A DNA stretch of 64,000 bases, from assembly GCF_001677475.2 (NCBI RefSeq), contig NZ_CP015229.1; one strand, 5' to 3'. Position 1 is the first letter of the stretch. Each line of letters opens with the position of its first letter. The notes beneath the pieces are model-generated. The model worked only from the letters and a program-made list of their open reading frames with translations, had not been told where the DNA came from and did no database searches. Of the stretch, positions 26,817-53,776 are shown one piece after another. A program made the position numbers and the translations under genes. The stretch is from Escherichia coli (lineage in GTDB: Bacteria; Pseudomonadota; Gammaproteobacteria; Enterobacterales; Enterobacteriaceae).

Positions 26817-27983
26817 ATGAACTTACATGAATATCAGGCAAAACAACTTTTTGCCCGCTATGGCTTACCAGCACCGGTGGGTTATGCCTGTACTACTCCG
26901 CGCGAAGCAGAAGAAGCCGCTTCAAAAATCGGTGCCGGTCCGTGGGTAGTGAAATGTCAGGTTCACGCTGGTGGCCGCGGTAAAGCGGGCGGTGTGAAAG
27001 TTGTAAACAGCAAAGAAGACATCCGTGCTTTTGCAGAAAACTGGCTGGGCAAGCGTCTGGTAACGTATCAAACAGATGCCAATGGCCAACCGGTTAACCA
27101 GATTCTGGTTGAAGCAGCGACCGATATCGCTAAAGAGCTGTATCTCGGTGCCGTTGTTGACCGTAGTTCCCGTCGCGTGGTCTTTATGGCCTCCACCGAA
27201 GGCGGCGTGGAAATCGAAAAAGTGGCGGAAGAAACTCCGCACCTGATCCACAAAGTTGCGCTTGATCCGCTGACTGGCCCGATGCCGTATCAGGGACGCG
27301 AGCTGGCGTTCAAACTGGGTCTGGAAGGTAAACTGGTTCAGCAGTTCACCAAAATCTTCATGGGCCTGGCGACAATTTTCCTGGAGCGCGACCTGGCGCT
27401 GATCGAAATCAACCCGCTGGTCATTACCAAACAGGGCGATCTGATTTGCCTCGACGGCAAACTGGGCGCTGATGGCAACGCACTGTTCCGCCAGCCTGAT
27501 CTGCGCGAAATGCGTGACCAGTCGCAGGAAGATCCACGTGAAGCACAGGCTGCACAGTGGGAACTGAACTACGTTGCGCTGGACGGTAACATCGGTTGTA
27601 TGGTTAACGGCGCAGGTCTGGCGATGGGTACGATGGACATCGTTAAACTGCACGGCGGCGAACCAGCTAACTTCCTTGACGTTGGCGGCGGCGCAACCAA
27701 AGAACGTGTAACCGAAGCGTTCAAAATCATCCTCTCTGACGACAAAGTGAAAGCCGTTCTGGTTAACATCTTCGGCGGTATCGTTCGTTGCGACCTGATC
27801 GCTGACGGTATCATCGGCGCGGTAGCGGAAGTGGGTGTTAACGTACCGGTCGTGGTACGTCTGGAAGGTAACAACGCCGAACTCGGCGCGAAGAAACTGG
27901 CTGACAGCGGCCTGAATATTATTGCAGCAAAAGGTCTGACGGATGCAGCTCAGCAGGTTGTTGCCGCAGTGGAGGGGAAATAA
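26817..27983 (+). CDS. sucC: succinyl-CoA synthetase beta subunit
   Basis: 388-aa ORF, ATP-grasp. Confidence 0.97.
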
Positions 27984-28852
27984 TGTCCATTTTAATTGAT
28001 AAAAACACCAAGGTTATCTGCCAGGGCTTTACCGGTAGCCAGGGGACTTTCCACTCAGAACAGGCCATTGCATACGGCACTAAAATGGTTGGCGGCGTAA
28101 CTCCAGGTAAAGGCGGCACCACCCACCTCGGCCTACCGGTGTTCAACACCGTGCGTGAAGCTGTTGCTGCTACTGGCGCTACCGCTTCTGTTATCTACGT
28201 ACCAGCACCGTTCTGCAAAGACTCCATTCTGGAAGCTATTGATGCAGGCATCAAACTGATTATCACCATCACTGAAGGCATCCCGACGCTGGATATGCTG
28301 ACCGTGAAGGTGAAACTGGATGAAGCGGGCGTTCGCATGATCGGCCCGAACTGCCCAGGCGTTATCACTCCGGGTGAATGCAAAATCGGTATCCAGCCTG
28401 GTCACATTCACAAACCGGGTAAAGTGGGTATCGTTTCCCGTTCCGGTACACTGACCTATGAAGCGGTGAAACAGACCACGGATTACGGTTTCGGTCAGTC
28501 GACCTGTGTTGGTATCGGCGGCGACCCGATCCCTGGCTCTAACTTTATCGACATTCTCGAAATGTTCGAAAAAGATCCGCAGACCGAAGCGATCGTGATG
28601 ATCGGTGAGATCGGCGGTAGCGCTGAAGAAGAAGCGGCTGCGTACATCAAAGAGCACGTTACCAAGCCAGTTGTAGGTTACATCGCTGGTGTGACTGCGC
28701 CGAAAGGCAAACGTATGGGCCACGCGGGTGCGATCATTGCCGGTGGGAAAGGGACTGCGGATGAGAAATTCGCTGCTCTGGAAGCCGCAGGCGTGAAAAC
28801 TGTTCGCAGCCTGGCGGATATCGGTGAAGCACTGAAAACTGTTCTGAAATAA
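27983..28852 (+). CDS. sucD: succinyl-CoA synthetase alpha subunit
   Basis: 289-aa ORF, 1-nt overlap with sucC. Confidence 0.97.
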
Positions 28853-28951
28853 ATATCTGTAATAAGAAATAGCCCTCGCCGCTTCCCTCTACAGGAATGG
28901 CGAAGGGCTGTCGGTTTCGACATGGTTGGCCATCGTATGATGGCCTTTTTT
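28853..28951 (+). ncRNA. sdhX: sucD 3'UTR-derived sRNA region (SdhX/RybD-like) ending in an intrinsic terminator
   Basis: Two hairpins (agccctcgcc...ggcgaagggct at 28871-28909; ggccatc...gatggcc plus T6 at 28928-28951) directly after sucD stop; position matches the known SdhX locus; sequence identity not verified. Confidence 0.5.
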
Positions 28952-30347
28952 ATGCCTTAAACGTTAACCACGGTCGAAATCTGACCGCTGGCTGAATTAA
29001 TCCGGCTTCTTGTTGAGCTTCGATAACCGGACCAATATCTTTATAAGCCGCTGGCGCTTCTTCAAGACGTCGTTCTTCGCGCAATGTGACGCATTGCCAC
29101 GGCAGCGTTGACTCTTCAGTCACGCGTGAGCGCATGGCCTGCCGACGCTGGCTGCGTCCTGCTCCGTGACTGCATGACCACAGCCACTCCGGGTTGCCGC
29201 AACCTACCGCAAGCCACGAATAATCGCCCATTGAACCAGGGATTAATGCCAGATCACCCACTCGTGCCGGTGTTGCGCCTTTGCGATGAATATTCATTTC
29301 ATGCTCGCGAAGGATGATGTTATGTGGCACATCCACCACCAGATGCGAATTGTCCTGATGAAAGAGATCGGCAAAACATACGCGCACCATTTCGGCAATT
29401 GTGACGCGATTTAACCATGCGTAACGCGCCGCCATCCCCATCGCTTGTAGATATTCCTCCGCCAGTCCACCGGTTAGACCATATAACTCGCTTTGTGGAT
29501 GTTTATGCCCGGCAGGCCAGGCGGCACGGGCGCGATCCATCCAGCGTCTTCCGACGTAAAAGCCAACATCTCGCGATCCACTGTGGATCATCACCACAAT
29601 ATCGCCTGTTTTCAGCCCTTGTTGCCAGGCTACATGGCGATCAACCACGCTATCAACGACCTGAAGTTCAATAAAATGATTACCTGAACCCGGCGTACCC
29701 AGACAAGGATCGCGGAGTAATGCGCGGTCCGTTGCCAGCAGGGCGGGTGGGGCATAACGCGAATGACTGTTATGCTCGTTAAGCCCAATGCAGCGGTCAA
29801 TCTCTTGTACCATTCGGGGGATATTCGTGCGTGTCCAGAGACCTGCTGATGGCAAGGTCGACACGCAATCTGCCGGTCCGTCATCAAAAAGCGCGGTGAA
29901 CGCCTGTGCGGATAACGGAACATCGCGCTCATTTTGCAGTAGCACTTGCGTTAACCGCTGAGCGATGACGTCTTTATGCGCTTCGGCTTGCTCAAGTGTT
30001 AATCCGGTCGTCAGCAGCCGCATGCCACAAGAAATATCGGTGCCGATGGCGGCAGGAATGACTAAATCCGGCGTTGAGGCCACCACCGCGCCAACGGGGA
30101 CGCCATTGCCGGGATGAAAATCTGGCGTCGCGCACGTCTGGCGCACATAACCTGGGTGGTCTGGTAGCTTCACTTCTGCAAAATCAAGCAGTTGTGTTAC
30201 TGCTTTTTCTTCCAGCGGCAGTTCGTCCGGCAGCAGTACGCGGGCACTGGCACCTGATGGACGAGATAATGAAACAATATTGTTGGCGCGGGAAAGTTGG
30301 ATCCCTTTGCGCAGAAAGGCTTTATCAAGCCTTGAAAGATGATGCAT
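28950..30347 (-). CDS. RtcB-family RNA ligase paralog (3'-phosphate/5'-OH ligase family)
   Basis: 465-aa ORF with RtcB motifs aligned to E. coli RtcB from memory: PAAIGTDISCGM, GSGNHFIE, IHSGSRDVG, IPGSMG, SCSHGAGR, AYKDI. Confidence 0.85.
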   Translation of the reverse strand: MHHLSRLDKAFLRKGIQLSRANNIVSLSRPSGASARVLLPDELPLEEKAVTQLLDFAEVKLPDHPGYVRQTCATPDFHPGNGVPVGAVVASTPDLVIPAAIGTDISCGMRLLTTGLTLEQAEAHKDVIAQRLTQVLLQNERDVPLSAQAFTALFDDGPADCVSTLPSAGLWTRTNIPRMVQEIDRCIGLNEHNSHSRYAPPALLATDRALLRDPCLGTPGSGNHFIELQVVDSVVDRHVAWQQGLKTGDIVVMIHSGSRDVGFYVGRRWMDRARAAWPAGHKHPQSELYGLTGGLAEEYLQAMGMAARYAWLNRVTIAEMVRVCFADLFHQDNSHLVVDVPHNIILREHEMNIHRKGATPARVGDLALIPGSMGDYSWLAVGCGNPEWLWSCSHGAGRSQRRQAMRSRVTEESTLPWQCVTLREERRLEEAPAAYKDIGPVIEAQQEAGLIQPAVRFRPWLTFKA

Positions 30348-30938
30348 AACGCTGTCCTGAAATATAGACGTTAAACAACCCCCTGTATTGCGAGGGTAAT
30401 TTTGTCTTTCCGGTCAGCAGCCAGCAAAAGGGAAAGAAAACGCGCGTAGTGTATGTGGCGATAGCAAGTTTTACAAGTGGTAAATCTGGCTTATTGTTAA
30501 AGAGAAATTATCTTTAGCGAAGCCTTTTAAGGCCATGACTCATTCAATTTAACCGGACACAGAGATTATATAACATAGGGTATCTAAATTTATCATTGTA
30601 TACTTGTCATACTTCAAGTTGCATGTACTGCATCGATGTTCGCTCAGCCTGGCCACTTACTTATGTAAGCTTCTGGGAATTCATTATTTGTTGCCTTCCT
30701 GCAACTCGAGTTATTTAGAGTATATTTACACATATGAATAATATACTTACAATAATGTTTTTAAAGTATTGCATGCGGATAACTGAGGTGAAATTCCTGT
30801 TTTAGGATTATTGTCACTTTATTTTCCTGGTTGGACATATAGCTGACTGGTTTGTTTATTTGAATTATGATATTCATTAGTGCTACTGTTTTTTTATAAA
30901 ATAATTTTTTGAATTGTTATTTTTTCACGGAAGGCATT

Positions 30939-31844
30939 ATGCGAGGGAAAATACCTAAAACGGAACTGCTGGTGACTTTTGAGGTCGTCGCACGTCATGA
31001 AAGTTATACCAGAGCGGCAGAGGAGTTAGCGTTAACCCAAAGTGCAGTATTCAGACAAGTGAGTGCGCTGGAGGAATTTTTACATACTCCGTTATTTTCA
31101 CACTCTAAAAAACGTATTTTTCTTAATGATGCAGGGAAGTATTACCTGGGGATAGTAAAAGAAACATTAAATAAGCTGGAACGCGATACCAATACCATTA
31201 TGACCTGGCAACCTACAGTTAAGGTTATTGAACTTGCCGTGAATCCTACGTTTAGTACCCACTGGTTAATCCCAAATTTACATGAATTCACAAAGTTACA
31301 TCCCGATATTATTGTTAATATTCACTCTTTAGCTAATAACGGCGATTTTCTTAATCGGGAGTACGATGCTGTCATTATGCGCGAAAATTTTTGCGCGCCC
31401 TGGGCGGAAGTAGAATATCTCTTTGAAGAAGAGATTTTGCCGGTATGCAGCGGCAGTTTGCTTGCAATGTCCGATCAAAAACTGTCAGTGGCAGAACTGC
31501 TTACAGAGTTACCACTTCTGCATCAAAGTACCCGTATTACTGGCTGGGAAGAGTGGTTTGCTTTATCTGGCGTTAGCAGTCCGCTGGTCAATAACGGACC
31601 ACGTTTCGATTTGCTTTCAATGCTGATTGCCGCCGTGCGCTCTAATCTCGGCGTGGCGCTGTTACCACGGTTCGCTATTCAACATGATTTGGATAGTGGC
31701 GATATGGTGATTCCCTGTGATGTGCCTATTCGTACCGGTAATCGTTTTATTATGACGTGGCAGGAAGAGAAGTCTGACTCGCCGCACTTGCAGCAATTTC
31801 GTGAATGGTTGCTGGCGAAATCGGTCGTACCGCAGGAGATGTAA
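30939..31844 (+). CDS. LysR-family transcriptional regulator
   Basis: N-terminal HTH (LVTFEVVARHESYTRAAEELALTQSAVFRQVSALE), ~300 aa, GGAAGG Shine-Dalgarno before ATG at 30939; divergent from the RtcB paralog. Confidence 0.85.
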   Translation: MRGKIPKTELLVTFEVVARHESYTRAAEELALTQSAVFRQVSALEEFLHTPLFSHSKKRIFLNDAGKYYLGIVKETLNKLERDTNTIMTWQPTVKVIELAVNPTFSTHWLIPNLHEFTKLHPDIIVNIHSLANNGDFLNREYDAVIMRENFCAPWAEVEYLFEEEILPVCSGSLLAMSDQKLSVAELLTELPLLHQSTRITGWEEWFALSGVSSPLVNNGPRFDLLSMLIAAVRSNLGVALLPRFAIQHDLDSGDMVIPCDVPIRTGNRFIMTWQEEKSDSPHLQQFREWLLAKSVVPQEM

Positions 31845-31877
31845 AACCTGCGCCTGGCGGGATGCCAGGCGCAGTTA

Positions 31878-32480
31878 TTACCAGTCGATACCCGGCTGGG
31901 CCTGAATGCCGCTATCAAAAGCATGTTTGACGGGGCGGATTTCGCTGACCGTATCCGCCATTTTTAATATCTGACTGTGGCAACCGCGTCCGGTGACAAT
32001 GACACTTTGTTGTGCCGGGCGGTTTTGCAGAGAAGCGATCACTTCTTCGGTATCCAGATAATGGTAAGCCAGCATATAGGTGAGCTCATCAAGCACCACT
32101 AAGTCGTAACGCTTGTCAGCCAGCATCCGTTTGCTTTCCGACCAGACCTCTTTCGCCGCGTCGATATCCGCTTGTCGGTTCTGTGTTTCCCAGGTAAAAC
32201 CGGTTCCCATAATATGAAACTCAACCCCCAGCGGCTGGAGAAGGTTGTATTCGCCGTTGTCCCATTGCCCCTTGATGTACTGCGCAACCCCCACCGTTTT
32301 GCCATGACCCACCGCGCGCGTCACAGTACCAAACGCGGCAGTGGATTTCCCTTTGCCGTTGCCGGTGAAAACAATCAAGATCCCTTTTTTCTCTATCGCC
32401 GCCGCGACGCGCGTATCGACCTGTTCCTTCAATTTCTGCTGGCGCTGCACATGCCGTTCTGTTGAAATTCGCGCTTCCAT
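31878..32480 (-). CDS. ATP:cob(I)alamin adenosyltransferase, BtuR/CobA-type paralog
   Basis: 200-aa ORF closely resembling E. coli BtuR (VFTGNGKGKSTAAFG P-loop, VVLDELTYM, RPVKHAFD); last gene of the island operon. Confidence 0.85.
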   Translation of the reverse strand: MEARISTERHVQRQQKLKEQVDTRVAAAIEKKGILIVFTGNGKGKSTAAFGTVTRAVGHGKTVGVAQYIKGQWDNGEYNLLQPLGVEFHIMGTGFTWETQNRQADIDAAKEVWSESKRMLADKRYDLVVLDELTYMLAYHYLDTEEVIASLQNRPAQQSVIVTGRGCHSQILKMADTVSEIRPVKHAFDSGIQAQPGIDW

Positions 32481-32489
32481 TCATTTTCC

Positions 32490-34142
32490 TTAATGTCCCG
32501 CAGGGCAACTGGCGCAGCGGTGTTGCTGCTCAAACTGACTAAAGAAATTATTGCCTTTATCATCTACCAGGATGAATGCGGGCAGATTTTCCACTTCCAT
32601 CATCCACACCGCTTCCATACCCAGCTCCGGGTATTCAAGGCAACGCAGACTTTTGACATATTCTTGCGCCAGTAACGCAGCTGCACCGCCAATACTTCCC
32701 AGATTGAAGCCGCCATGTTTGTGACAGGCATCGGTGACCTGCTGGCTGCGGTTACCTTTCGATAACATCACCAGACTGCCGCCAGCCGCCTGGAAGGTAT
32801 CGACATAACCGTCCATTCGACCGCCCGTGGTTGGACCCAGTGAACCGCAGGCCATGTTCTCCGGTGTTTTCGCCGGGCCAGCGTAATAGACAATATGATG
32901 CTTCAGGTAATCCGGCATCGGTTCGGCGCTATCCAGCCGCGCTTTTATTTTGGCGTGGGCGATATCGCGTGCCACTACGATGGGACCACTTAACGACACG
33001 CGGGTGCCTACCGGTAATCTGGCGAGATCCTGCATCACGTCACGCAACGGACGGTTTAGATCCAGATGTACATGTTGCGCGTGATTTTCTTCCCGCAGTG
33101 AGGCTGGAATATATTGCCCCGGATTGTGTTCGAGTTTTTCCAGCCAGATACCGTGCTTGTTAATTTTTGCTTTGATATTGCGATCGGCAGAACAGGAGAG
33201 CGCCATAGCTATCGGACAAGAGCCACCGTGACGCGGCAGACGAATGACGCGAATATCATGAGCGAAATATTTACCCCCAAATTGCGCACCAATACCAAAT
33301 TGCTGACTGGCCTCGAGCAACACTTTTTCCAGCTCAATATCACGGAATGCTTGTCCCTGCTCGTTTCCGCTGGTGGGCAAATTGTCGTAATATTTCGTTG
33401 AGGCCAGCTTGGCAACTTTTAAGGTTTGATCGGCTGAAAGCCCTCCGACGACAAAGGCGATGTGGTAAGGCGGGCAGGCAGCGGTGCCCAGCGATTTCAT
33501 TTTTTCGATTAAAAATGCGGTCAGTTTTTCTGGTTGCAATAAGGATTTGGTTTCCTGATAAAGTGCGGCTTTATTGGCGGAGCCGCCCCCTTTATTAACA
33601 CAGAGAAAATGGTACTCATTACCAGCGACAGCGTTGATATCAATCTGCGCCGGGAGATTGGTTTGCGTATTGACTTCGGTATACATATCCAGCGGCGCAT
33701 TTTGTGAAAAGCGCAGATTATTTTCCTGGAAAGTGGTGTAAATGCCTTTGCTTAAGGCTTCAGCGTCGTTACCTCCGGTCCATATCTGTTGCCCTTTACT
33801 GGCAACAATAGTTGCGGTGCCGGTATCCTGACAGTTGGGTAATACCCCTTTTGCTGAGACTTCAGCATTACGTAATAACTGCAACGCAACGTATTTATCA
33901 TTACTACTGGCCTGCGGATCGTTAAGAATGCTGGCGACCTGTTGCAAATGAGCGGAACGTAAGAAAAAAGAAGCTTCATAAAATGCCTGCCGGGCAAGCA
34001 GCGTTAATGCTTCAGGTGCGATTTTTATCACTTCTTCGCCGTCTAATTCCGTTACTGTAATATGCTGATCGCTAATTAATGTATATTCTGTACCGTCTTT
34101 ATTTTGTAGAAATGGTTCTTGCCAGATAAATGGTTTGGACAT
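32490..34142 (-). CDS. fumD: class I fumarate hydratase homolog, probable mesaconase/fumarase (FumD-like)
   Basis: 550-aa ORF highly similar to FumA/FumB along its length ([39 protein letters not shown]); clustered with glutamate mutase and methylaspartase. Confidence 0.85.
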
Positions 34143-34249: not shown

Positions 34250-35530
34250 TCAGGGCAGAGCAACGTTCGATTCATTGGGTTTTAATGCTTTACCCCGACA
34301 GCCCTCGCCGAAATGTTCGCCTTCCCACCGACTCACCATCGCAGCGCCCATTGCGTTGCTCATGACGTTTGTCGCGGAACGCCCCATATCAAGGAACGGA
34401 TCAACGCCCATCAGCAAGATCAGCCCCGCTTCCGGAATATTGAACTGGTTGAGCGTGGCGGCGATAACCACCATTGAAGCGCGTGGTACGCCAGCCATTC
34501 CTTTCGAGGTCAACATCAGGATCAACAGCATGGTGATTTGCTCACCGATGGATAAATGGATATTGCAGGCCTGGGCGATGAAAACTGTGGCGAAGGAGCA
34601 GTAGGCCATTGATCCAACGAGATTAAATGAGTAGCCAATGGGTAAGACAAAGCTGGCAATTTTGGGGGAAACGCCAAATTGCTCCAGTTTTTCAAGCGTT
34701 CCTGGAAAAGCCGCTTCAGAACTGGATGTGGTAAATGCCAGCAGGGCGGGTTCCGAAAGGGCGCGGGTCAGGCGTCTGATGCAGGGGCCGACATAAACGA
34801 TGGCCAGACCGATAAGCAGCACCCAAAGTAACAACATGGTGAAATAAAATTCACCCATAAAGATCCCGGCGCTCACCATAACTGCCAGTCCTCGTTCAGC
34901 AATCAATGCTGAAATAGCGGCGAATACGGTCAGGGGAGCGAAGAGCATGACGTAGCCAGTGAGCTTTAACATGGCATGTGCCAGCGAATCTAAGGCGTGA
35001 ACGATGGCGCTGCCTTTCTCGCCAATCGCCGTCAGGCTACAGCCGAGGAAAATTGAGAACACCACGATTTGCAAAATTTCATTGTGCGCCATGGCATCGA
35101 CAATGCTGGTGGGGAAAGCATGCGAAATAAATACTTTTAGCGTGAAGGGTTCTGACGCGACCACTCCAGTGGTTTCGGCACCGTGTGCAACAAAATTAAT
35201 TCCTGTACCTGGCATGAAGAAATTTACTGTTATTAAGCCTAAGGCAATTGACAGCAATGAGGCGCAAATAAATAAAAAGAGTGTTTTAGAAAAAATACGA
35301 CCAAGGGCTTTGGCATCGCCCATTTTAGCAATACCTACCACCAGGGTAGAGACCACTAACGGAGCGATAATCATTTTTATCAGTCGTAAGAAAATCGTCG
35401 TGAATATCGATATTTCTTGCGCATAGAGTTTTGCGGTTTCCGGTGAAGCAGTGTTATTGAGCACTACGCCGATAACCATTCCAAGTACCAGCGCCAAAAG
35501 AATCATCGTGGTTAAACTTATTTTCTTCAT
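34250..35530 (-). CDS. dicarboxylate/amino acid:cation symporter (DAACS family; GltP/DctA-like)
   Basis: Polytopic ORF with DAACS-type motifs; Met at 35530 preceded by GGAGG; substrate not inferable. Confidence 0.8.
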   Translation of the reverse strand: MKKISLTTMILLALVLGMVIGVVLNNTASPETAKLYAQEISIFTTIFLRLIKMIIAPLVVSTLVVGIAKMGDAKALGRIFSKTLFLFICASLLSIALGLITVNFFMPGTGINFVAHGAETTGVVASEPFTLKVFISHAFPTSIVDAMAHNEILQIVVFSIFLGCSLTAIGEKGSAIVHALDSLAHAMLKLTGYVMLFAPLTVFAAISALIAERGLAVMVSAGIFMGEFYFTMLLLWVLLIGLAIVYVGPCIRRLTRALSEPALLAFTTSSSEAAFPGTLEKLEQFGVSPKIASFVLPIGYSFNLVGSMAYCSFATVFIAQACNIHLSIGEQITMLLILMLTSKGMAGVPRASMVVIAATLNQFNIPEAGLILLMGVDPFLDMGRSATNVMSNAMGAAMVSRWEGEHFGEGCRGKALKPNESNVALP

Positions 35531-35575
35531 TTTTTCCTCCATCAGGTGCACGGCGATAAATCAGAATCAGGAGAA

Positions 35576-35690: not shown

Positions 35691-36008
35691 TTACAAATCG
35701 AAACTCATATTTAATAAAGGTGCATGTTGCTGTGCACCATAGACATCATTGTCACCTACATTCCCGGAGATAATATCTCGTGGCATGACGATTTTTACTG
35801 CGTTAGAAGGATCAAACCAGACAATACGATGAATAAAGTCAGGTTCAACATGATATAAGCGCGCAATCAGTTCTGGGGTTAATTGCCCTGATGATTTAAC
35901 TCGCTCATAGTTTTCTTTGGTTTTAAATAAAATATCTAAAACCAGTTCGTAAGGTCCGGCATTTTTCGAACGAATGACTTGCGCCAGTGAGACAATTGAC
36001 TGTTTCAT
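35691..36008 (-). CDS. uncharacterized small protein, partner of the upstream 456-aa protein (possibly DUF4387-like; unverified)
   Basis: 105-aa ORF overlapping the upstream gene by 4 bp; no motif I can assign. Confidence 0.55.
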   Translation of the reverse strand: MKQSIVSLAQVIRSKNAGPYELVLDILFKTKENYERVKSSGQLTPELIARLYHVEPDFIHRIVWFDPSNAVKIVMPRDIISGNVGDNDVYGAQQHAPLLNMSFDL

Positions 36009-37375
36009 GCCTGAACTCCTTCTGGCGTCACCTGTTCAATATGGAAATCAAAACGCAGAGCGTCGTTGGCTTCAATCAGGTGATATATGGAAAATTCGTA
36101 TACTGGCCCGCCCTGGATATCAGAAGGGGAGAACGGGAACGCCAGGTTGCCTGCGGTAGCGATGCGGTTTTCATAGCCGTAGTGCAGCATAGTAGAGCGC
36201 ACCAGCGAGCAAACGCTGTTGGCAATTTCCTGGGTCGATGCAACTACATCTAGCACAATCCCCAGCTCATGCCCGGCAGTTTGCATCGGTTCATGGTCGC
36301 CCATCACCCCGTTTTTGCCGTACAGGTGGAAATTGATGCGAATGCTGTCATCGTCGAGCGACAGGTTACGCGAAACGCTGGTTTTGACTTCATCGATGAT
36401 TTTATCGATCCCGGCGATCATGATCGGGTCGCGCGTTCCTGCGATGGTCAGACAGCGGAAGCCCACTCGTCGCGCACCTTCCAGTTTCAGGGCATACGGC
36501 GTTCCTTCATGCTTAGAACCGCTGACGTACACTTCGCCGTCATTGACCGCTTTAAATGTGCAGCCTTTCAGGTTCAACACGCCGCCAGGTCCAGGCAGGA
36601 AGTAGGGATCGGATTTCTCATACAGTGTGTGTGCAGCCGCTGACGTTTCGGTAAATTTACGCTTCGGATTAAATGTCTTCAGCGTAAAGCCGTTGTCATC
36701 AATGATGCCCATCGCACAGTCAGAGCCTGAGCCGGGCGTTGCGGCGATTGCCGCGCATTCAAGGATTTTCCCACAATGCAGCGCCAGACCTTCATCAAAG
36801 CCTTGCATGATCGGTAGCGCAGCAAAGCAGGCCGGGTCGTAAGCGCGCCCGCCCAGCACCACTTGCGCGCCTTCTTTCAGCGCCTGCTGGAAGGGTTCGA
36901 TGCCCATTTGCGCGACGATATACGTACTTTCGTCAATCGCGTCGTGGGTTAACGGCGGGACAAAATCCAGCGCCGTGATTTTGCCGTTATCCAGCGCCTG
37001 GTGGACGATGGCTTTGTCAACGTCTGCCGGGATCAACGCCATCGAGAACGAGAGGTGCTCTTCCCGGGCAATCTCATGAATTATTTCTCGGCACCACTCC
37101 AGGTGTGGTGCGGCACCAGAACCGCCAGCCGTTCCGATCACCACCGGTATATTATTTTGCACGCCTGCGGTGATCATATAGCGCAGATCGCGCTTGACCC
37201 CTGCGCGATCGGTAAACGGTTTGCCTGCCCCGAGGTAGTGGGGGCCTGGATCGGAAGAGCCTGCATCAACGGCGATCAGATCGGGCGATTCTGCCATCGC
37301 TTTGCGGAAGCTCTCTTCCGGGAATCCATACCCGAGGATTGCCGTTGGCGATAAGACTTTAAAAGAACGAGCCAT
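36005..37375 (-). CDS. uncharacterized protein, large member of a coupled pair (possibly DUF1446/AtuA-like or an AcnX-type hydratase; unverified)
   Basis: 456-aa ORF starting 3 bp after methylaspartase; several conserved-looking Cys/Gly-rich stretches (GTAGGSGAAPH, HCGKILECAAIAATPGSGSDC); family assignment needs an HMM search. Confidence 0.55.
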   Translation of the reverse strand: MARSFKVLSPTAILGYGFPEESFRKAMAESPDLIAVDAGSSDPGPHYLGAGKPFTDRAGVKRDLRYMITAGVQNNIPVVIGTAGGSGAAPHLEWCREIIHEIAREEHLSFSMALIPADVDKAIVHQALDNGKITALDFVPPLTHDAIDESTYIVAQMGIEPFQQALKEGAQVVLGGRAYDPACFAALPIMQGFDEGLALHCGKILECAAIAATPGSGSDCAMGIIDDNGFTLKTFNPKRKFTETSAAAHTLYEKSDPYFLPGPGGVLNLKGCTFKAVNDGEVYVSGSKHEGTPYALKLEGARRVGFRCLTIAGTRDPIMIAGIDKIIDEVKTSVSRNLSLDDDSIRINFHLYGKNGVMGDHEPMQTAGHELGIVLDVVASTQEIANSVCSLVRSTMLHYGYENRIATAGNLAFPFSPSDIQGGPVYEFSIYHLIEANDALRFDFHIEQVTPEGVQA

Positions 37376-37378: not shown

Positions 37379-38620
37379 TTAATCCTTAGCCTGCAACAGC
37401 GCGATAGTACGATTCATTTCGTTGAAGACAATATCGAGGCCTTCGTCAAAGCCCATCCCAGGTTTTACCAGCATACGCATAGGGCGAGCGGCAAGGGCGA
37501 CGTGGACACAGGTGCGTGCACTGACATCAGTTTCATTGCAGGTGCCGCCCTGGTACGCTTCCATGTTGTGGCTGTTGCAATAAAGAACTGCATCGACGAT
37601 GTTGTGAATACTGCCCAGATCCGGGGTTTTGATTTGCACCATGTGGCAACTGGCGGCATCAGTGAAATCAACAATATCCTGGTAGGTGTTACACCATTCA
37701 TCGGCCACAATTTTCACGCCGGAACCGAGGCGCATCAGCTCTTTGGTAATCGCGGTCAGCAGGCGAATTTGATCGGGCTTGTTACCGGCATCGACCGGCC
37801 CTTCAATGTAGAGCGGCAGGCCTTGCGCTTCTTTTTCCAGGCTGGCGATGTATTGCGCACAGCGAAGCGGATCCATATCGAAGATCAGACCGATAGTGCC
37901 GTATACATCGATGTGCAGGGTTGGGTGGTAGCGTGCGCTGGTGCGCTTGCTCAGAATGCGATCCGACAGCCAGCGGACATATTCGCGCAGTTTTTCACCT
38001 TTAAAGCCCAGCTTCTCTTCGACGTTATTAATCAGCGCATGGGGCAGCACGTCGATGCCTTTAAGGATCATCTTATCGACGGCGATATATCGATCGTCGC
38101 CGCTCTGACCAAATAATGGAATGGATTCCGCCACGCGTGGCAACTGCCATTCATCACAGACCACTTCAGTTTTCAGACGGCCGGTTGCCAGCGCGGCAGC
38201 ATCAAGCAGCGCCTGTGATAATCCGTAGCGCACGGCGGTATGCAGCAAGTTGCCGTCAATACGCAATTTGTCGAAGAAACGGGCATTCGGCAGGAAAGCA
38301 TCCACATCGCGGCCTACCAGTAATGGCTTAATATGGTCGTTGAGGAACGGAATAAAGTGCTCTGCGAGGAACAGTGGATCGCGACCACCTGCCCCGGAAT
38401 ACTGTACGGCAGCACAGTCACCTACAGCGACCGCGCCGTTTTCCAGAATCAACTGTACCGATACGCACTCCCCAGCCTGACGTACGGCGTTAAACCCTTG
38501 TGTTACTGGCTCCCCGGTATAAAAAAAGCCGTCGTGACCCGCTCCGTTTTTTATCGCCTGCTGGTCATCGAAATAGAATGAGGAATAGCCAGCGGTGAAC
38601 AGGGCCTGTTTTATTTTCAT
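37379..38620 (-). CDS. mal: 3-methylaspartate ammonia-lyase (beta-methylaspartase)
   Basis: 413-aa ORF, enolase-superfamily methylaspartase signature (FYFDDQ.AIK.GAGHDGF N-terminus). Confidence 0.9.
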   Translation of the reverse strand: MKIKQALFTAGYSSFYFDDQQAIKNGAGHDGFFYTGEPVTQGFNAVRQAGECVSVQLILENGAVAVGDCAAVQYSGAGGRDPLFLAEHFIPFLNDHIKPLLVGRDVDAFLPNARFFDKLRIDGNLLHTAVRYGLSQALLDAAALATGRLKTEVVCDEWQLPRVAESIPLFGQSGDDRYIAVDKMILKGIDVLPHALINNVEEKLGFKGEKLREYVRWLSDRILSKRTSARYHPTLHIDVYGTIGLIFDMDPLRCAQYIASLEKEAQGLPLYIEGPVDAGNKPDQIRLLTAITKELMRLGSGVKIVADEWCNTYQDIVDFTDAASCHMVQIKTPDLGSIHNIVDAVLYCNSHNMEAYQGGTCNETDVSARTCVHVALAARPMRMLVKPGMGFDEGLDIVFNEMNRTIALLQAKD

Positions 38621-40065
38621 TATGGTCTTCCTATTAATTTACTGTGGGATACAGCATTGATGTCATCTACAACCATCTGGAATGTCGGTTGGCGTCCTTC
38701 AAAGCGTGCGCGTTCCGCAACGTAATCGTGGTGGAGGTCGAGAATATCTTTTGGCAATGGAACGGCTCCGGCTTCCAGTACGCGTATCGCGCCGGTGTTG
38801 TCACGGACCGGAAGAATTTTGCCCGCGTTGCAGGCGGCTGGCGCAAATGGCACATCCAGTACGCCCGCTTCAAATGCCAGCACCGTTCCGCGCGCAATAT
38901 CATCATTACCCAGTTCGAACACTTTATTCAGTACTGCGCGAACCTCGCTCTTAATCAGTTCAATTTCCAGTTCAACCGCAGGGCACGGCGGAAATTTCTG
39001 CTCATTGACCATGTTGAGCATCTGGCGGGAGGCTTTTAGCCCCTGAATGTTGGCAGCGGCAGTCGGGATGCCCCAGGCTTCGTGCGGACTTTTGGTGATG
39101 ACTTTGGTGGCACCAGACATCCCCGCGACGGCTGCGCCCCAGGAGATAATAGCGAACGCTTTCGATTCGTCTTCCGGAAAGCCGCCCATCCACTGGTGAA
39201 ACACGGTACTTAATTCATAGTCGGTATAGCCATAGCTCTGAAAGTAGTCATGTGCAAGTTCACGCAGAGACTGGATCGCCGCAACATCCTGCGTCAGGCT
39301 GCCGACCTGTCCATAACCAACGGTGATAGATTTCACACCCTGTTCCAGTGCCAGCAATCCTTCGATTATCGCGATAGAGTGCGAGATAAACGGCGGGATC
39401 AGCGTACCCGTTAGTGGGCCAAACGGTTCGCGGTTGATGCGGATCCCGTGTTCTTCATACATCCCCATTAAACGGTCGCAGTACTGCCAGTCGCGGATCG
39501 ATTTTTCCAGCGTTACGCGTTTGGCATACGGAATGTTGTAGGAAATGCCGCCGCCTTCATAACTGGTAAAGCCGCTGGACATCGAGATTTCAGCCAGCAG
39601 ACGTGCATCTGGCGTGCCGTGGCGGATCTGTAGCGGTTTTTGCAGGGTTTCGGTGAGGCGACGGCAAGCAGCGACACCATGGTTAACTACCGGTAAACCG
39701 TTCAGTTTAGAGGTTCCGGCTTCGATGGATTTTTTAATCCCTACAGCCGCTTCTTCGTACCGATTCAGACGGGTATATGCATCGATGGTGCTTGGCAGCA
39801 GATCGCACTCTTCTTGTAGTGTTTTCAGTAGTTCGATGTGTTCGTCCATCAGCGCCACACCTGCGCGTGGTTGGCTAAGGGTTTTTCCTTCCTTGTCTGC
39901 TTTCAGCAGCGCAAGAGAGAAGCGTTTATGCTCAGGAATGGTTTGTTGGTATTTAACGCCATCTTCAAAGTTTTCAACATCCTTGCCGGTTTCCCAGGTT
40001 TTCAGTACCTGTTGCCGCTCGGTCATGAATTCGTCATGGGTTAATTTCTTATTTCGAAGTTCCAT
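38620..40065 (-). CDS. glmE: glutamate mutase epsilon (E) subunit
   Basis: 481-aa ORF matching methylaspartate mutase E chain; 1-nt overlaps with mal and near glmL. Confidence 0.88.
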   Translation of the reverse strand: MELRNKKLTHDEFMTERQQVLKTWETGKDVENFEDGVKYQQTIPEHKRFSLALLKADKEGKTLSQPRAGVALMDEHIELLKTLQEECDLLPSTIDAYTRLNRYEEAAVGIKKSIEAGTSKLNGLPVVNHGVAACRRLTETLQKPLQIRHGTPDARLLAEISMSSGFTSYEGGGISYNIPYAKRVTLEKSIRDWQYCDRLMGMYEEHGIRINREPFGPLTGTLIPPFISHSIAIIEGLLALEQGVKSITVGYGQVGSLTQDVAAIQSLRELAHDYFQSYGYTDYELSTVFHQWMGGFPEDESKAFAIISWGAAVAGMSGATKVITKSPHEAWGIPTAAANIQGLKASRQMLNMVNEQKFPPCPAVELEIELIKSEVRAVLNKVFELGNDDIARGTVLAFEAGVLDVPFAPAACNAGKILPVRDNTGAIRVLEAGAVPLPKDILDLHHDYVAERARFEGRQPTFQMVVDDINAVSHSKLIGRP

Positions 40066-40083: not shown

Positions 40084-41472
40084 TTATAGGGTTAAGCATT
40101 GAATACTGGTGCGCGCGGCGGCCAGCGGATCGACTCTGGCGACGTTTGCCAGCAGTGGTAATAGCCCCCGGGAATCGCGGTAATATTCAAATTCGGTCGG
40201 TAAGAGAATGCGTTTACCGTCGTCGTTTAACTCGCGGTATTTCAACCAGTGATGCATATCGAACTGACTGGCACGCGAGAGCCATCCGCCGGAACCCACG
40301 ACTTTACGCACGGTTGTCAGGTCACGTCCCATCTGTAAATCGACATTGCCGACGCAGGTGCAGACCTCTTTTTTGGTGCCCGCATGTCTTTCGGTGGCAT
40401 AACCCACACACAGTCCGGCCAGGACGGTATCGAAATATTTCTCTTCTGCATTTGCGGGTAAGTAGTCGGGATGAGCGACTAAATGACGGAGATAATGATA
40501 AAAAGCGTCCAGCTGTGCGGGTTGCTGAGCAAAATTCACATTGACTAACTCTTTCGCACTTTCACCAACCACCACTGCCGAGACGCGCATTCCCAGATCG
40601 CCTTCCACCGTCCGTTTTACGAAGGGTTCCGGTACGCCGTGTAAAACGGTGTCGGGCGAGAGCGTGTTGGCACAGGCGGAATAGACATCGGTGGTTGCGC
40701 CGCCCATGTCGATCAGCATGAACTCTTTCCAGCTGTGATCGACGTTACTGATTGCCTTAACCAGTTCAAAGACCGTCCATGGTGTCGGCCTTGGTTCTTC
40801 GCCTGTTTTATCAACAATGACATCCAGCCCTTTCCCTTTAACGATGCGTTTAAGGAATATGTCGCAAATAGCCTGGCGTGCGGCTAAAGGGTTCGGATGG
40901 TCAAGATCGGGCAGAACGTTGTCGACGATGGTCAGGTCTTTATGCCCGAGGAGCTCCTGCACCTCGTCCTGAATATCCCGGTTTCCGGCATAAATAATGG
41001 CGCAGTCGAGTTGGGATTCTGCCAGCACACGGGCGTTATTCAGTCCGTAACTTTCTTCTCCGCCGTCGGTGCCGCCGGTGAACAAGAGAATATCGGGCTG
41101 CGTTTCTTCCAGTGCCTGGATATCACGGCGGTTCAGCTTGTAGGAGTAATATTGCGCAATTTTAGCCCCCGCAGAGTGAGCGGTTACTTTCGCGGTTTCC
41201 AGGGTGATAGAAGGCACCAATCCCATTGCGGCAACCGCCAGCCCACCTTTGGCAGAGGAGGAATACTTTAATGCAACCTCACCACTGTTTAACAGGGGGA
41301 GGGCATCATCTACGTTTAACACCTGGTCCAGGCTGGAGAAAAACCCCTTCGCCAGATGATGGGTGGTGGTTGGGGTCAGAACGTGGTTAACCAACGTTAA
41401 CGCGTCCCCCTCCCGGGTGAAGAGGGCTGCTTTGGTCCACGTCGAACCAATATCGACAGAGACGATTTGCAT
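40084..41472 (-). CDS. glmL: glutamate mutase accessory protein (GlmL/MutL)
   Basis: 462-aa ORF between S and E subunit genes as in clostridial glmS-glmL-glmE; overlaps glmS stop. Confidence 0.8.
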   Translation of the reverse strand: MQIVSVDIGSTWTKAALFTREGDALTLVNHVLTPTTTHHLAKGFFSSLDQVLNVDDALPLLNSGEVALKYSSSAKGGLAVAAMGLVPSITLETAKVTAHSAGAKIAQYYSYKLNRRDIQALEETQPDILLFTGGTDGGEESYGLNNARVLAESQLDCAIIYAGNRDIQDEVQELLGHKDLTIVDNVLPDLDHPNPLAARQAICDIFLKRIVKGKGLDVIVDKTGEEPRPTPWTVFELVKAISNVDHSWKEFMLIDMGGATTDVYSACANTLSPDTVLHGVPEPFVKRTVEGDLGMRVSAVVVGESAKELVNVNFAQQPAQLDAFYHYLRHLVAHPDYLPANAEEKYFDTVLAGLCVGYATERHAGTKKEVCTCVGNVDLQMGRDLTTVRKVVGSGGWLSRASQFDMHHWLKYRELNDDGKRILLPTEFEYYRDSRGLLPLLANVARVDPLAAARTSIQCLTL

Positions 41473-41921
41473 CAGATTGCCTCTTCAAGAATGCGAGTAT
41501 CAACGTCATGACGTTGGTTGATATCGTGGGCCATCAGCTGACAAACATCTTCTAAGTCATGACTTGGGGAAAAGACGCGATCAAATCCCATCTCTTTGAA
41601 CTTGGTTTCCACGTCAGCGAAGTCATGTTTTCCGACCACCAGGTTACCGCCCACATAGAGCAGGATGTTACCCAGCCCACGCTCGATGCAGCGTTCGCGC
41701 ATGCCCAGACAATCGATATCGCCATGCCCATAGATAGAAGAGACGACAATCGCGTCAGCGCCAGTTTCAATAGCAGCATCAATATATTCGTCCTGGCTGA
41801 CCATTACGCCCAGATTAATGACTCTGAAGTCGTGGTTGCTAAAAACGCGGTCCAGAACTTTATTGCCTACTGCATGGCAGTCCGCGCCAATAACGCCAAT
41901 CACAAGTGTTGCTTTCTTCAT
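41472..41921 (-). CDS. glmS: glutamate mutase sigma (S) subunit, B12-binding
   Basis: Cobalamin-binding motif ([10 protein letters not shown]); start at 41921 ([19 protein letters not shown]) preferred over track start 41984. Confidence 0.88.
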
Positions 41922-42468: not shown

Positions 42469-42891
42469 TTAATCAGTATAATCCTCATACAATAGGTCAG
42501 GATTTACAGAACCGTTAACGGGGTTTTGGTGTTGAAATTTAGAAATGGTGGAGTCAATCAATGAAGACAGTATCGAAAAAATGACTGTGTCAGAACTAAT
42601 TTCAATTAATCCTTCTCGTTGTTGATCAAAAAAGATATTTATCTTGATTTCATTTGTACTACGGCAATCAATATGTAGTAATTTTTGATCGCTGAGATTT
42701 TCTGTTTCATAAATGTTTTTGGCGATAGTCGGATGTATTGATGCCAGACATCTGCTCAGATAAGCCATATCCTTTAAGGAACTCCCCGCTGAGTAGAGGA
42801 TGTCAGAGAATTTTTGTGTGTCAACTGTTGTCTCTGAAGCGTATGTTGCATTGACAGGAAGAGTATTGAAAGAGATCTGAGATGGTATCAT
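42469..42891 (-). CDS. hypothetical protein (no recognisable family)
   Basis: 140-aa ORF in low-GC DNA, co-oriented with and 81 bp downstream of the 314-aa ORF. Confidence 0.5.
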   Translation of the reverse strand: MIPSQISFNTLPVNATYASETTVDTQKFSDILYSAGSSLKDMAYLSRCLASIHPTIAKNIYETENLSDQKLLHIDCRSTNEIKINIFFDQQREGLIEISSDTVIFSILSSLIDSTISKFQHQNPVNGSVNPDLLYEDYTD

Positions 42892-42972: not shown

Positions 42973-43917
42973 TTAAAGTATTTTATTGGCTTCGGTTAAC
43001 TGATCTATAACCAGTGCCAGATTGGTAAACATTTTGAAAAAGCGATACTGGCTCGGAATATCTCTTTCAAAGACGAAACATTCAAGGTCATTGTTTGAAA
43101 AATAAAGGACTAGTGTTGCTGATTCGTCAGGGAAAACATGGAAATGTATCTGGTTACCAGAAGGAGGATAGTCCAGAAGAAGGGTATCTTTGCCCGTCAC
43201 ATACCTGTTGTTGTCGTGGACGCTACGCTCACACTTCATCAGAGGTGTCAGGATACTCATGTATTCATCTGATGTTAATTTATTAAAATCATCATTCATT
43301 TTAAAGAAACGATAAAGTAACAGTACATCCTCTTGCGTAACCGGTTCGTTTGTTTTTAGAGGGAAATAAGCGGGAACCAGAAGATGAGGTTCTAATCTAT
43401 TTTGTTGAGCGCTATAACTGAATTTGAACATAAATTCTGGATCGCTCATCAATTGAGCGACATAATTATGCCTGGCTTCAAAAATTTTAATTTTTATCAG
43501 GTTGAATAAGTCTGTTTCGTCATCCTGTATTAAAAGACATTGGCCATAGCAGCCTGGATTTTTTTCATTATAAGCAGAAACGGTTATTCTGTCAGAGGTG
43601 TCAACGTTATATTCAAAAGCCAGATAGTGACCTTCTTCATCGCGATTTGTTTCCAGGTTATTTAAATTCATCACATGAAGTGTTTGCAATGCTGATTCAA
43701 TGAGTTGTTGACTCTCTGAGGTAAATGTTTTGCGCTGCGTTGTATAAAGTGTATCAATTCCAACGACTATCCGATGTGGATCAAGGATGGCGGCAATCAT
43801 CTTTATTACCTGCACAGTCACGGGTGATGTCATTGATTCTTCATCTGTTTTTAGAGGATCATTAGATGGCCAACCTGAGAAGCGATTGACAGCCGAACCG
43901 ATATTATCTGGACTCAT
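42973..43917 (-). CDS. hypothetical protein (no recognisable family)
   Basis: 314-aa ORF, low GC (~37-38% by eye versus ~51% backbone), no motif I can assign. Confidence 0.55.
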   Translation of the reverse strand: MSPDNIGSAVNRFSGWPSNDPLKTDEESMTSPVTVQVIKMIAAILDPHRIVVGIDTLYTTQRKTFTSESQQLIESALQTLHVMNLNNLETNRDEEGHYLAFEYNVDTSDRITVSAYNEKNPGCYGQCLLIQDDETDLFNLIKIKIFEARHNYVAQLMSDPEFMFKFSYSAQQNRLEPHLLVPAYFPLKTNEPVTQEDVLLLYRFFKMNDDFNKLTSDEYMSILTPLMKCERSVHDNNRYVTGKDTLLLDYPPSGNQIHFHVFPDESATLVLYFSNNDLECFVFERDIPSQYRFFKMFTNLALVIDQLTEANKIL

Positions 43918-44722
43918 AGCAGCAACCTCATTGTAATCAAGCGAGGCGCTGAGCGTACTCGGCTATAGAAAAACTAACTTGCAAAAATCGCTCATTTTTC
44001 ATTTATCAGGCGAAAGTGGCCTCTGTTCACTCAGAAACAATCACTCCCGCTAAGTCATACCTGTTTCATCGATACATTTAAGTGATTATTACTAATGAAA
44101 CAATAACATAACGGGCTTACGGTCGGTGCTCATAAAGGCAACAATCAATTAACTTTGATAAAAATATGTTATGTAAAATAGCAACAAATTGGCTACTCTA
44201 ATCAATTGGTATTATAAAAAGAGGATAAGGCGGTTCTGTTAAATAAAACACTGGTTTTTTATCTATACCTTTTCATTGTAATAATTGTGTTGCATAAATA
44301 TTTCACAATAAATTAACAATAAAATCACCAATGATCTATGGTTTATACATAATTAACATATTTGGTTGGTTTTGATATAAATCAATTTTTAATTCTTGAA
44401 AAAAATCTGCAAAACACGATAAATTGTCGTAGATCAAATTGGTGAGATCGTGACAATTTCGCTATAAATTGATCACTGTCGAAAAATGCAAATTTGCTCA
44501 ATAAAAACCTGTTTATTGTAAGGATTTTGCGGCGTAATATAATTACGGGATCAATTTGGTTTATTCATTAACATATTTGTAACTTTTTTATCATTGTCTT
44601 TTCCTCTTTTGATGAAATGGCAACGATAGAGGCGAGCAAATAATTTTGTATTGGGGCATGCGTGTGACCCTTTCTAACGGGGTTCACTCTCGGAGTCTTC
44701 ATGCGATGAGCAAGGAGTCATG
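43918..44722 (+). promoter_or_regulatory. cydAB upstream regulatory region
   Basis: ~800-bp AT-rich non-coding region before cydA; in K-12 this carries multiple promoters under ArcA/Fnr control (established knowledge; sites not mapped here). Confidence 0.6.
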
Positions 44723-46291
44723 ATGTTAGATATAGTCGAACTGTCGCGCTTACAGTTTGCCTTGACCGCGATGTACCACTTCCTTTTTGTGCCACTGACG
44801 CTCGGTATGGCGTTCCTGCTGGCCATTATGGAAACGGTCTACGTCCTTTCCGGCAAACAGATTTATAAAGATATGACCAAGTTCTGGGGCAAGTTGTTTG
44901 GTATCAACTTCGCTCTGGGTGTGGCTACCGGTCTGACCATGGAGTTCCAGTTCGGGACTAACTGGTCTTACTATTCCCACTATGTAGGGGATATCTTCGG
45001 TGCGCCGCTGGCAATCGAAGGTCTGATGGCCTTCTTCCTCGAATCCACCTTTGTAGGTCTGTTCTTCTTCGGTTGGGATCGTCTGGGTAAGGTTCAGCAT
45101 ATGTGTGTCACCTGGCTGGTGGCGCTCGGTTCAAACCTGTCCGCGCTGTGGATTCTGGTTGCGAACGGCTGGATGCAAAACCCAATCGCGTCCGATTTCA
45201 ACTTTGAAACTATGCGTATGGAGATGGTGAGCTTCTCCGAGCTGGTGCTTAACCCGGTTGCTCAGGTGAAATTCGTTCACACTGTAGCGTCTGGTTATGT
45301 GACTGGCGCGATGTTCATCCTCGGTATCAGCGCATGGTATATGCTGAAAGGTCGTGACTTCGCCTTCGCTAAACGCTCCTTTGCTATCGCTGCCAGCTTC
45401 GGTATGGCTGCCGTTCTGTCTGTTATTGTTCTGGGTGATGAATCCGGCTACGAAATGGGCGACGTGCAGAAAACCAAACTGGCTGCTATTGAAGCTGAGT
45501 GGGAAACGCAACCTGCGCCTGCTGCCTTTACTCTGTTCGGCATTCCTGATCAGGAAGAGGAGACGAACAAATTTGCGATCCAGATCCCTTACGCGCTGGG
45601 CATCATTGCAACGCGTTCCGTGGATACTCCAGTTATCGGCCTGAAAGAACTGATGGTGCAGCATGAAGAACGCATTCGTAACGGGATGAAGGCGTACTCT
45701 CTGCTCGAACAACTGCGTTCTGGTTCTACCGACCAGGCGGTTCGTGACCAGTTCAATAGCATGAAGAAAGACCTCGGTTACGGTCTGCTGCTGAAACGCT
45801 ATACGCCAAACGTGGCTGATGCGACTGAAGCTCAGATTCAACAGGCAACCAAAGACTCCATTCCGCGTGTAGCGCCGCTGTACTTTGCGTTCCGTATCAT
45901 GGTGGCGTGTGGCTTCTTGCTGCTGGCAATCATCGCGCTCTCTTTCTGGAGTGTCATCCGCAACCGCATTGGCGAGAAAAAATGGTTGCTGCGCGCCGCG
46001 CTGTACGGTATTCCGCTGCCGTGGATTGCTGTAGAAGCGGGCTGGTTCGTGGCTGAATATGGCCGCCAACCGTGGGCTATCGGTGAAGTGCTGCCGACAG
46101 CTGTGGCAAACTCGTCACTGACCGCAGGCGATCTCATCTTCTCAATGGTGCTGATTTGTGGCCTGTATACCCTGTTCCTGGTGGCAGAATTGTTCTTAAT
46201 GTTCAAGTTTGCACGCCTCGGCCCAAGCAGCCTGAAAACCGGTCGCTATCACTTTGAGCAGTCTTCCACGACTACTCAGCCGGCACGCTAA
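44723..46291 (+). CDS. cydA: cytochrome bd-I ubiquinol oxidase subunit I
   Basis: 522 aa from [20 protein letters not shown]. Confidence 0.97.
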
Positions 46292-52307: not shown

Positions 52308-52853
<546 letters not shown>

Positions 52854-52862
52854 GAGAATTGC

Positions 52863-53654
52863 ATGAGCAGTAACTTCAGACATCAACTATTGAGTCTGTC
52901 GTTACTGGTTGGTATAGCGGCCCCCTGGGCCGCTTTTGCTCAGGCACCAATCAGTAGTGTCGGCTCAGGCTCGGTCGAAGACCGCGTCACTCAACTTGAG
53001 CGTATTTCAAATGCTCACAGCCAGCTTTTAACCCAACTCCAGCAACAACTCTCTGATAATCAATCCGATATTGATTCCCTGCGCGGTCAGATTCAGGAAA
53101 ATCAGTATCAACTGAATCAGGTCGTGGAGCGGCAAAAGCAGATCCTGTTGCAGATCGACAGCCTCAGCAGCGGTGGTGCAGCGGCGCAATCAACCAGTGG
53201 TGATCAAAGCGGTGCGGCGGCATCAACGACGCCGACAGCTGATGCTGGTACTGCGAATGCTGGCGCGCCGGTGAAAAGCGGCGATGCAAACACGGATTAC
53301 AATGCAGCAATTGCGCTGGTGCAGGATAAATCCCGCCAGGATGACGCAATGGTGGCATTTCAGAATTTCATCAAAAATTACCCTGATTCAACTTACCTGC
53401 CAAACGCCAATTATTGGCTGGGTCAGTTAAACTACAACAAGGGTAAAAAAGATGATGCGGCGTACTATTTTGCTTCGGTAGTAAAAAACTATCCGAAGTC
53501 ACCAAAGGCTGCAGATGCGATGTTTAAAGTCGGTGTCATCATGCAGGACAAAGGTGACACCGCAAAAGCGAAAGCCGTATACCAGCAGGTTATCAGTAAA
53601 TACCCTGGTACTGATGGCGCTAAACAGGCACAAAAACGTCTGAACGCGATGTAA
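52863..53654 (+). CDS. cpoB: cell division coordinator CpoB (YbgF), TPR protein
   Basis: 263-aa ORF, signal peptide, coiled coil and TPR region. Confidence 0.93.
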   Translation: MSSNFRHQLLSLSLLVGIAAPWAAFAQAPISSVGSGSVEDRVTQLERISNAHSQLLTQLQQQLSDNQSDIDSLRGQIQENQYQLNQVVERQKQILLQIDSLSSGGAAAQSTSGDQSGAAASTTPTADAGTANAGAPVKSGDANTDYNAAIALVQDKSRQDDAMVAFQNFIKNYPDSTYLPNANYWLGQLNYNKGKKDDAAYYFASVVKNYPKSPKAADAMFKVGVIMQDKGDTAKAKAVYQQVISKYPGTDGAKQAQKRLNAM

Positions 53655-53737
53655 TGCATAACACACGACCAGAAGTCGCATTATTTCTGGTCGTGTCGTG
53701 CGAATCATAAGCAGTTGAGTGATCTACATCGAAATTT

Positions 53738-53776
53738 TTGTTGCGCTCAAGTCTGAAATCAGTAATATATGCCGCC
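53738..53776 (+). promoter_or_regulatory. candidate sigma70 promoter of the lysT tRNA operon
   Basis: TTGCGC (-35, 53741-53746), 16-nt spacer, TAATAT (-10, 53763-53768), GC-rich discriminator GCCGCC; about 45 nt before lysT. Confidence 0.4.

Follow-up and report, generated by a model that had tools for sequence, protein, structure and literature searches.

The window, by which we mean the whole stretch of DNA analysed here (64,000 nucleotides), covers the E. coli region from sdh-suc to cyd, with accessory genes between sucD (27983-28852, + strand) and cydA (44720-46291, + strand). Nine of these are co-directional on the - strand, in the order glmS-glmL-glmE-mal-AtuA-DUF4387-transporter-fumD-cobA, and none of the nine open reading frames (ORFs) is truncated, either in the window or in two annotated E. 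coli genomes that were inspected. The array begins with glmS (41472-41921; PF02310), for the B12-binding subunit S of glutamate mutase; the RefSeq product is 149 aa long, the longest ORF reaches 41984, and the DxHxxG B12-binding motif reads DCHAVG in the translation. It continues with the gene for the glutamate mutase accessory (reactivating) protein GlmL/MutL (40084-41472; PF13941, 461 bits), which bears this name in RefSeq, and with glmE (38620-40065; PF06368, 706 bits), for subunit E of glutamate (methylaspartate) mutase; the mutase genes are intact. The methylaspartate ammonia-lyase gene mal (37379-38620; TIGR01502, 545 bits) comes next, followed by genes for an AtuA/DUF1446-family protein (36005-37375; PF07287) and a DUF4387 protein (35691-36008; PF14330). 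A dicarboxylate/amino acid:cation symporter is encoded at 34250-35551; it matches DctA/GltP models at 304-314 bits, under the equivalog cut-offs, is shorter in RefSeq (426 aa), and is called 'GltP' in PMC4682846. Directly upstream of cobA lies fumD (32490-34142; NF011921, 1279 bits), for a class I fumarase/mesaconase, and the FumD protein of O157:H7 has been characterised as a mesaconase/fumarase (PMC4682846). The array ends with cobA (31878-32480), on which a LysR-type regulator gene of the + strand (30909-31844) converges; the latter is GcvA-like (NF008352, 221 bits, under the cut-off), with a RefSeq start about 30 nt further in (301 aa), and is labelled LTTR in Fig 5 of PMC4682846.

The co-localisation of glmS, glmL, glmE and mal with fumD, in the same order as in O157:H7, and the position of cobA directly downstream of fumD and before a LysR-type regulator gene, place this locus in the cluster described by Kronen & Berg 2015 (PLoS One, PMC4682846). 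The frequencies given there are 26.5% for E. coli genomes and 90.6% for O157:H7 genomes. These authors also pointed out that the AtuA/DUF1446 protein is often mis-annotated as methylaspartate ammonia-lyase. The AtuA/DUF1446 and DUF4387 genes (35691-37375, - strand) overlap and lie between methylaspartase and transporter in every taxon examined. According to PMC4682846, it is unresolved what becomes of citramalate in E. coli, and the two genes are obvious candidates for that missing step.

Several other features of the region were observed. An RtcB-family gene (28950-30347, - strand; 465 aa; PF01139, 326 bits) stands alone between sucD and the LysR gene, and no ORF of at least 60 aa separates it from either. 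It scores below the NCBIfam cut-offs (207 versus 407 bits for NF007153, and 167.5 versus 271.8 for TIGR03073), is absent at this position in O157:H7, and occurs in other E. coli genomes as well as in a divergent Escherichia variant. Between it and the LysR gene lies an unusually long non-coding stretch (30348-30908, 560 nt), which has no Rfam match and contains several sigma-70-like matches on the + strand (30470-30871). At the other end, between glmS and cydA, two low-GC ORFs (36-38% GC) of 140 aa (42469-42891, - strand) and 314 aa (42973-43917, - strand) are annotated as hypothetical in RefSeq and gave no significant match in Pfam, including a relaxed search, or in PADLOC; both accompany the cluster in O157:H7 and in further strains. 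In K-12, the interval between sucD and cydA is occupied by mngR, mngA and mngB, all of which are absent from the window between 28853 and 44719. Some E. coli genomes carry mngAB in addition to the cluster; their matches are split into two pieces, with mngA/mngB annotated. Further along, at 52754-54876 (+ strand), the window has a CpoB/ybgF thermometer element, a run of seven tRNA genes and three RtT repeats, which are ordinary and unrelated to cobA.

Organisation of the cobA end of the array

The intergenic distances from glmS to cobA are, in order, -1, 18, -1, 3, -4, 139, 107 and 9 nt, so that six of the eight junctions are short. Together with the shared direction and the hairpin behind cobA, this spacing may indirectly point to one transcript for the glmS-to-cobA array. 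The gaps of 139 and 107 nt could house internal promoters, from which the transporter gene and fumD-cobA would each be transcribed on their own. A consensus promoter scan yielded fewer sites in total than expected from shuffled sequence, and none on the - strand in either of these two gaps. A search against Rfam at gathering scores detected in the window no cobalamin riboswitch or other known RNA element that could link the cluster to B12 sensing, and between 30300 and 44750 no Rfam element was found even at E<=1.

The last junction is that between fumD and cobA (32481-32495, - strand). The cobA ATG begins 9 nt past the fumD stop codon, and this stop, TAA, is also the first part of a TAAGGA Shine-Dalgarno sequence. 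Both the 9-nt spacing and the TAAGG core recur in seven sequences from five taxa, with TAAGGA in six of the seven and TAAGGT in the divergent Escherichia variant. From this recurring overlap, we consider cobA to be probably translationally coupled to fumD.

Past the other end of cobA, 3 nt after its stop codon and before the convergent LysR gene, a terminator-like hairpin of 11 pairs, 9 of them G-C, can be drawn at 31848-31874 (- strand; dG -28.1 kcal/mol, z -6.7 versus shuffles). Its U-tail is weak (GUUUUAC). GC-rich hairpins that differ in sequence also come after cobA in the other taxa.

Family, motifs and relatives of the island CobA

The initial annotation had described a 200-aa protein closely resembling E. 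coli BtuR, encoded by the last gene of the glutamate mutase operon. An intact ORF runs from ATG to TAA at exactly 31878-32480 (- strand) and encodes 200 aa. Its product matches the NCBIfam models NF004637 (295.7 bits, cut-off 185) and TIGR00708 cobA (246.4 bits, cut-off 167.75), as well as PF02572 CobA_CobO_BtuR of Pfam (215.9 bits, cut-off 25.7), for which positions 1-172 of the 172 in the profile are covered. PF02572 and its N-terminal companion PF12557 are the only Pfam families on the protein; the same search gave no PduO-type or EutT-type domain, and the island CobA thus falls outside these two families. Aligned with K-12 BtuR, taken from the yciK-btuR locus, the island CobA shows 67% identity and 84% positives with zero gaps. 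The Salmonella CobA structures 1G5R and 4HUT match at E about 1e-88. In the 1G5R alignment (E=9.7e-89), island residues 6-200 fall on 2-196 without a gap, and the Salmonella CobA crystal structure is 69% identical in sequence. Because of these family matches and alignments, the description of the gene was correct as regards coordinates, length and resemblance, and its terminal place was likewise seen in the nine-gene co-directional array with a hairpin behind it. RefSeq uses the name cobO for both the island gene and btuR. By these sequence comparisons, the island gene is real and undamaged, and represents the CobA/BtuR/CobO-type ATP:co(I)rrinoid adenosyltransferase family a second time, with its enzymatic function predicted.

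The gene itself is already known. It is annotated in RefSeq and drawn in Fig 5 of Kronen & Berg 2015 (PMC4682846), the legend of which reads 'CobA, cob(I)alamin adenosyltransferase' beside GltP, FumD and LTTR. No biochemical, genetic or expression report on the island CobA was found in the searched literature, including searches with the locus tags ECs0755-0761 and Z0886-0891. EHEC transcriptome and in-vivo-induced-gene papers mention eutT and btuR and do not mention the island gene.

Catalytic motifs were inspected in an alignment of five island-type proteins, K-12 BtuR and Salmonella CobA. Across both clades, 122 of the 200 columns are invariant, and these include all motifs checked. The modified P-loop of CobA, which binds ATP and Mg in the 1G5R structure, is present as the Walker-A-like GNGKGKST at residues 40-47 of the island CobA, compared to GNGKGKTT at residues 36-43 of Salmonella CobA. 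Thr42 of the Salmonella enzyme is thereby replaced by Ser throughout the island clade, consistent with the GK[ST] rule. The segment GFTWETQNR is invariant and places the equivalents of Phe91 and Trp93 at F95 and W97. [quoted passage not shown] The island proteins differ from the housekeeping ones by four extra N-terminal residues and by 26 positions that are fixed differently in the two clades, among them T42S in the P-loop and a cluster of changes around Trp69 (T68Q, P70D, and R74Y).

The nearest relatives of the island CobA are 200-aa proteins of 84-87% identity in Citrobacter, Salmonella enterica, Enterobacter and [Enterobacter] lignolyticus, together with an 86% identical variant labelled E. 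coli. Five neighbourhoods of these relatives were inspected. In all of them the gene begins 9 nt after a gene for a 550-aa class I fumarase, lies within a glutamate mutase/methylaspartase cluster, and has a convergent LysR gene behind it. The order fumD-cobA-(convergent LysR) is accordingly found in E. coli, the divergent Escherichia variant, Citrobacter amalonaticus, Salmonella enterica, Enterobacter cloacae and [Enterobacter] lignolyticus.

Identity is 84-92% among the island-type proteins and 68-71% between them and housekeeping BtuR/CobA, while the housekeeping proteins of E. coli and Salmonella share 89% identity. As the island copies resemble each other more than they resemble the housekeeping proteins, we regard the island cobA, on this sequence evidence, as an old paralogue that travels with the cluster. 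A recent duplication of btuR was considered and rejected, given 68% identity to btuR versus 84-87% to the cluster-linked copies of other genera.

Synonymous sites are saturated when E. coli is compared with the other genera, and dN/dS was therefore used only for comparisons inside E. coli and for those between Citrobacter, Salmonella and Enterobacter. Among the orthologues of the three genera, dN/dS is 0.04-0.06, which indicates strong purifying selection. Between the cobA genes of the window and O157:H7, with few substitutions to count, dN is 0.002 and dS 0.046. Low dN/dS and conserved motifs are marks of a gene selected for enzyme function, and the linkage, recurring in four other enterobacterial taxa, together with the purifying selection speaks for a use of the gene in conjunction with the cluster.

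Some differences between taxa were also noted. Citrobacter amalonaticus and Salmonella enterica have an extra glutaminase gene between transporter and fumD, and in Citrobacter and Salmonella a TP_methylase (SumT-like) gene and a gene for a PocR-domain AraC regulator are found beyond the LysR gene. As in the window, the cluster lies near sucD in Salmonella (within about 5 kb) and in the divergent Escherichia variant. Because this proximity is shared, the sucD-adjacent position may be ancestral or exchanged by recombination in the flanks, rather than the result of independent insertion.

Distribution in E. coli and coexistence with btuR

A query of 676 bases spanning the cobA gene and the fumD-cobA junction was used to search 5426 complete E. 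coli genomes. The junction was found in 1121 of them (20.7%), with a coverage of at least 80% in every match and an identity of at least 95%, and at least 80% of the 15-kb cluster is present in 1116 complete E. coli genomes.

Chromosomal btuR is sufficiently similar to the island gene (~67% nucleotide identity) to be seen in a more sensitive search. That search returned 6546 places versus 5425 records, and the excess of 1121 is the number of island carriers. Among the matches listed, six genomes that carry the island have two places each, namely the island copy and btuR. Since the excess of places equals the carrier count and the listed genomes have two places, the island gene is additional to btuR, in agreement with the suggestion of the initial annotation that it exists in addition to the chromosomal gene. 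E. coli carriers of the island apparently always keep chromosomal btuR. In EDL933, btuR is Z2540 and eutT is Z3715 (EHEC transcriptome and in-vivo-induced-gene papers). Strains like EDL933 thus encode three adenosyltransferases, as btuR and eutT are present besides the island cobA.

Proposed role and comparison with known systems

We consider it likely, from motifs, selection and gene order, that the island gene encodes a functional CobA-type adenosyltransferase, which is made together with FumD and boosts the supply of adenosylcobalamin (AdoCbl) to glutamate mutase GlmSE. In this model, the island CobA and the mesaconase FumD would be produced jointly, probably along with everything else encoded in the glmS-to-cobA array. 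Switching on the cluster would then give the cell a greater capacity to convert imported corrinoid to adenosylcobalamin, the cofactor of GlmSE. Prior reduction of the corrinoid to Co(I) would be carried out by flavodoxin, as for Salmonella CobA. Island CobA and the reactivating GlmL would together make up a supply-and-repair unit for the cofactor, by analogy with EutT/EutA of the eut operon and PduO/PduGH of the pdu operon. In both of these AdoCbl-dependent operons, an own adenosyltransferase is encoded beside a reactivating factor. Of this model, we infer the catalytic activity, the shared transcription and regulation, the reductant, and the gain for glutamate mutase.

The initial annotation pointed to the fact that E. 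coli makes no corrin de novo, and as an explanation of the gene this does not hold up. The same paralogue occupies the same place in Salmonella enterica and Citrobacter. Both are corrin (B12) producers, and the B12 auxotrophy of E. coli is therefore not the explanation. Moreover, an adenosyltransferase does not remove the need for imported corrinoid. For the rest, the interpretation given there appears reasonable, and its parts that are testable in silico are all supported by the sequence.

The housekeeping BtuR, with EutT when induced, might already provide enough AdoCbl, and because these two might suffice, a specific need for a third enzyme is unproven. The island gene could accordingly encode a functional but redundant adenosyltransferase that is retained because it is physically embedded in the cluster, with no specific gain for glutamate mutase over BtuR. 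Salmonella CobA serves several AdoCbl enzymes, island-bearing E. coli genomes keep btuR, and E. coli also has EutT, all of which would fit with redundancy. A dispensable gene should decay, however, yet dN/dS is 0.04-0.06, the 9-nt coupled position is kept across taxa whose synonymous sites are saturated, and the 1121 E. coli matches all span at least 80% of the 676-base query; we regard redundancy as unlikely. Loss of function of the entire cluster, with cobA silent or decaying together with its neighbours and without any present function in E. coli, is very improbable. It would account for the report that neither cluster expression nor methylaspartase activity could be detected in O157:H7 in any of the conditions used, whether cobalamins were supplied or not, and for the unresolved fate of citramalate in E. 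coli (PMC4682846). On the other hand, the nine ORFs are full length in the window as in the two annotated genomes inspected, the low dN relative to dS between the window and O157:H7 (few substitutions) speaks for selection on cobA within E. coli, and about 21% of complete E. coli genomes retain the cluster.

An opposite possibility is that the island CobA is used for something that BtuR does not do. It could have an altered corrinoid preference, for example for non-cobalamin cobamides of the gut, or deliver AdoCbl directly to GlmS as a chaperone. The 26 clade-fixed differences, including T42S, T68Q, P70D and R74Y, are compatible with such a change, and so is the long distinctness of the clade beside a housekeeping copy, even in Salmonella. 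PduO-type enzymes deliver AdoCbl to methylmalonyl-CoA mutase; we know of no CobA-type enzyme that acts as a delivery chaperone. The invariance of 122 of 200 columns across the clades, with all checked motifs among them, the conservative nature of the T-to-S exchange in GK[ST], and a sequence that gives no hint of a new interaction surface weigh against a new property, and we hold it to be quite unlikely. In a broader and equally doubtful version, the cluster-linked CobA would be tuned to non-cobalamin cobamides of the gut, be an AdoCbl delivery partner for GlmS/GlmL, or provide an AdoCbl signal for the LysR-type regulator. If true, any such specialisation would explain why the gene is retained beside a housekeeping CobA in corrin-producing Salmonella and Citrobacter.

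On the preferred reading, a supply of AdoCbl by the island CobA to glutamate mutase, an AdoCbl-dependent catabolic cluster would bring along its own cofactor-activating enzyme in roughly one E. coli in five and in the majority of O157:H7. This may be useful for making the still silent glutamate mutase pathway of pathogenic E. coli work, or for its heterologous expression. Beyond the picture of 2015, the present analysis adds the probably coupled 9-nt junction, the terminal hairpin, the separation of the CobA clade, dN/dS, the frequency of 20.7%, and a window in which no B12 riboswitch was found.

The cluster CobA of Kronen & Berg 2015 (PMC4682846) and the island cobA are the same gene, with the common order glutamate mutase, methylaspartate ammonia-lyase, DUF1446, transporter, FumD, CobA, and LTTR. 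Compared to the O157:H7 cluster, the version in the window has in addition the RtcB-family gene between sucD and the LysR gene. Compared to the clusters of Citrobacter and Salmonella, the E. coli versions are without the glutaminase, TP_methylase (SumT in PMC4682846) and PocR-type genes. Relative to Salmonella CobA and E. coli BtuR (EC 2.5.1.17; 1G5R, 4HUT), the island protein belongs to the same family and length class, at 67-69% identity without internal gaps and with conserved motifs, but forms a separate clade, marked by 26 diagnostic substitutions and an N-terminus that is four residues longer. Unlike btuR, which is part of a yciK-btuR unit, the island cobA ends a glutamate mutase cluster and is confined to ~21% of complete E. 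coli genomes. EutT and PduO are of unrelated families, and the eut and pdu systems have microcompartment genes, which were not seen in the island. The operon logic of EutT and PduO is nevertheless the same as that of the island CobA with GlmL, and the current understanding of such systems is unchanged by a locus that follows the familiar eut/pdu-like pattern.
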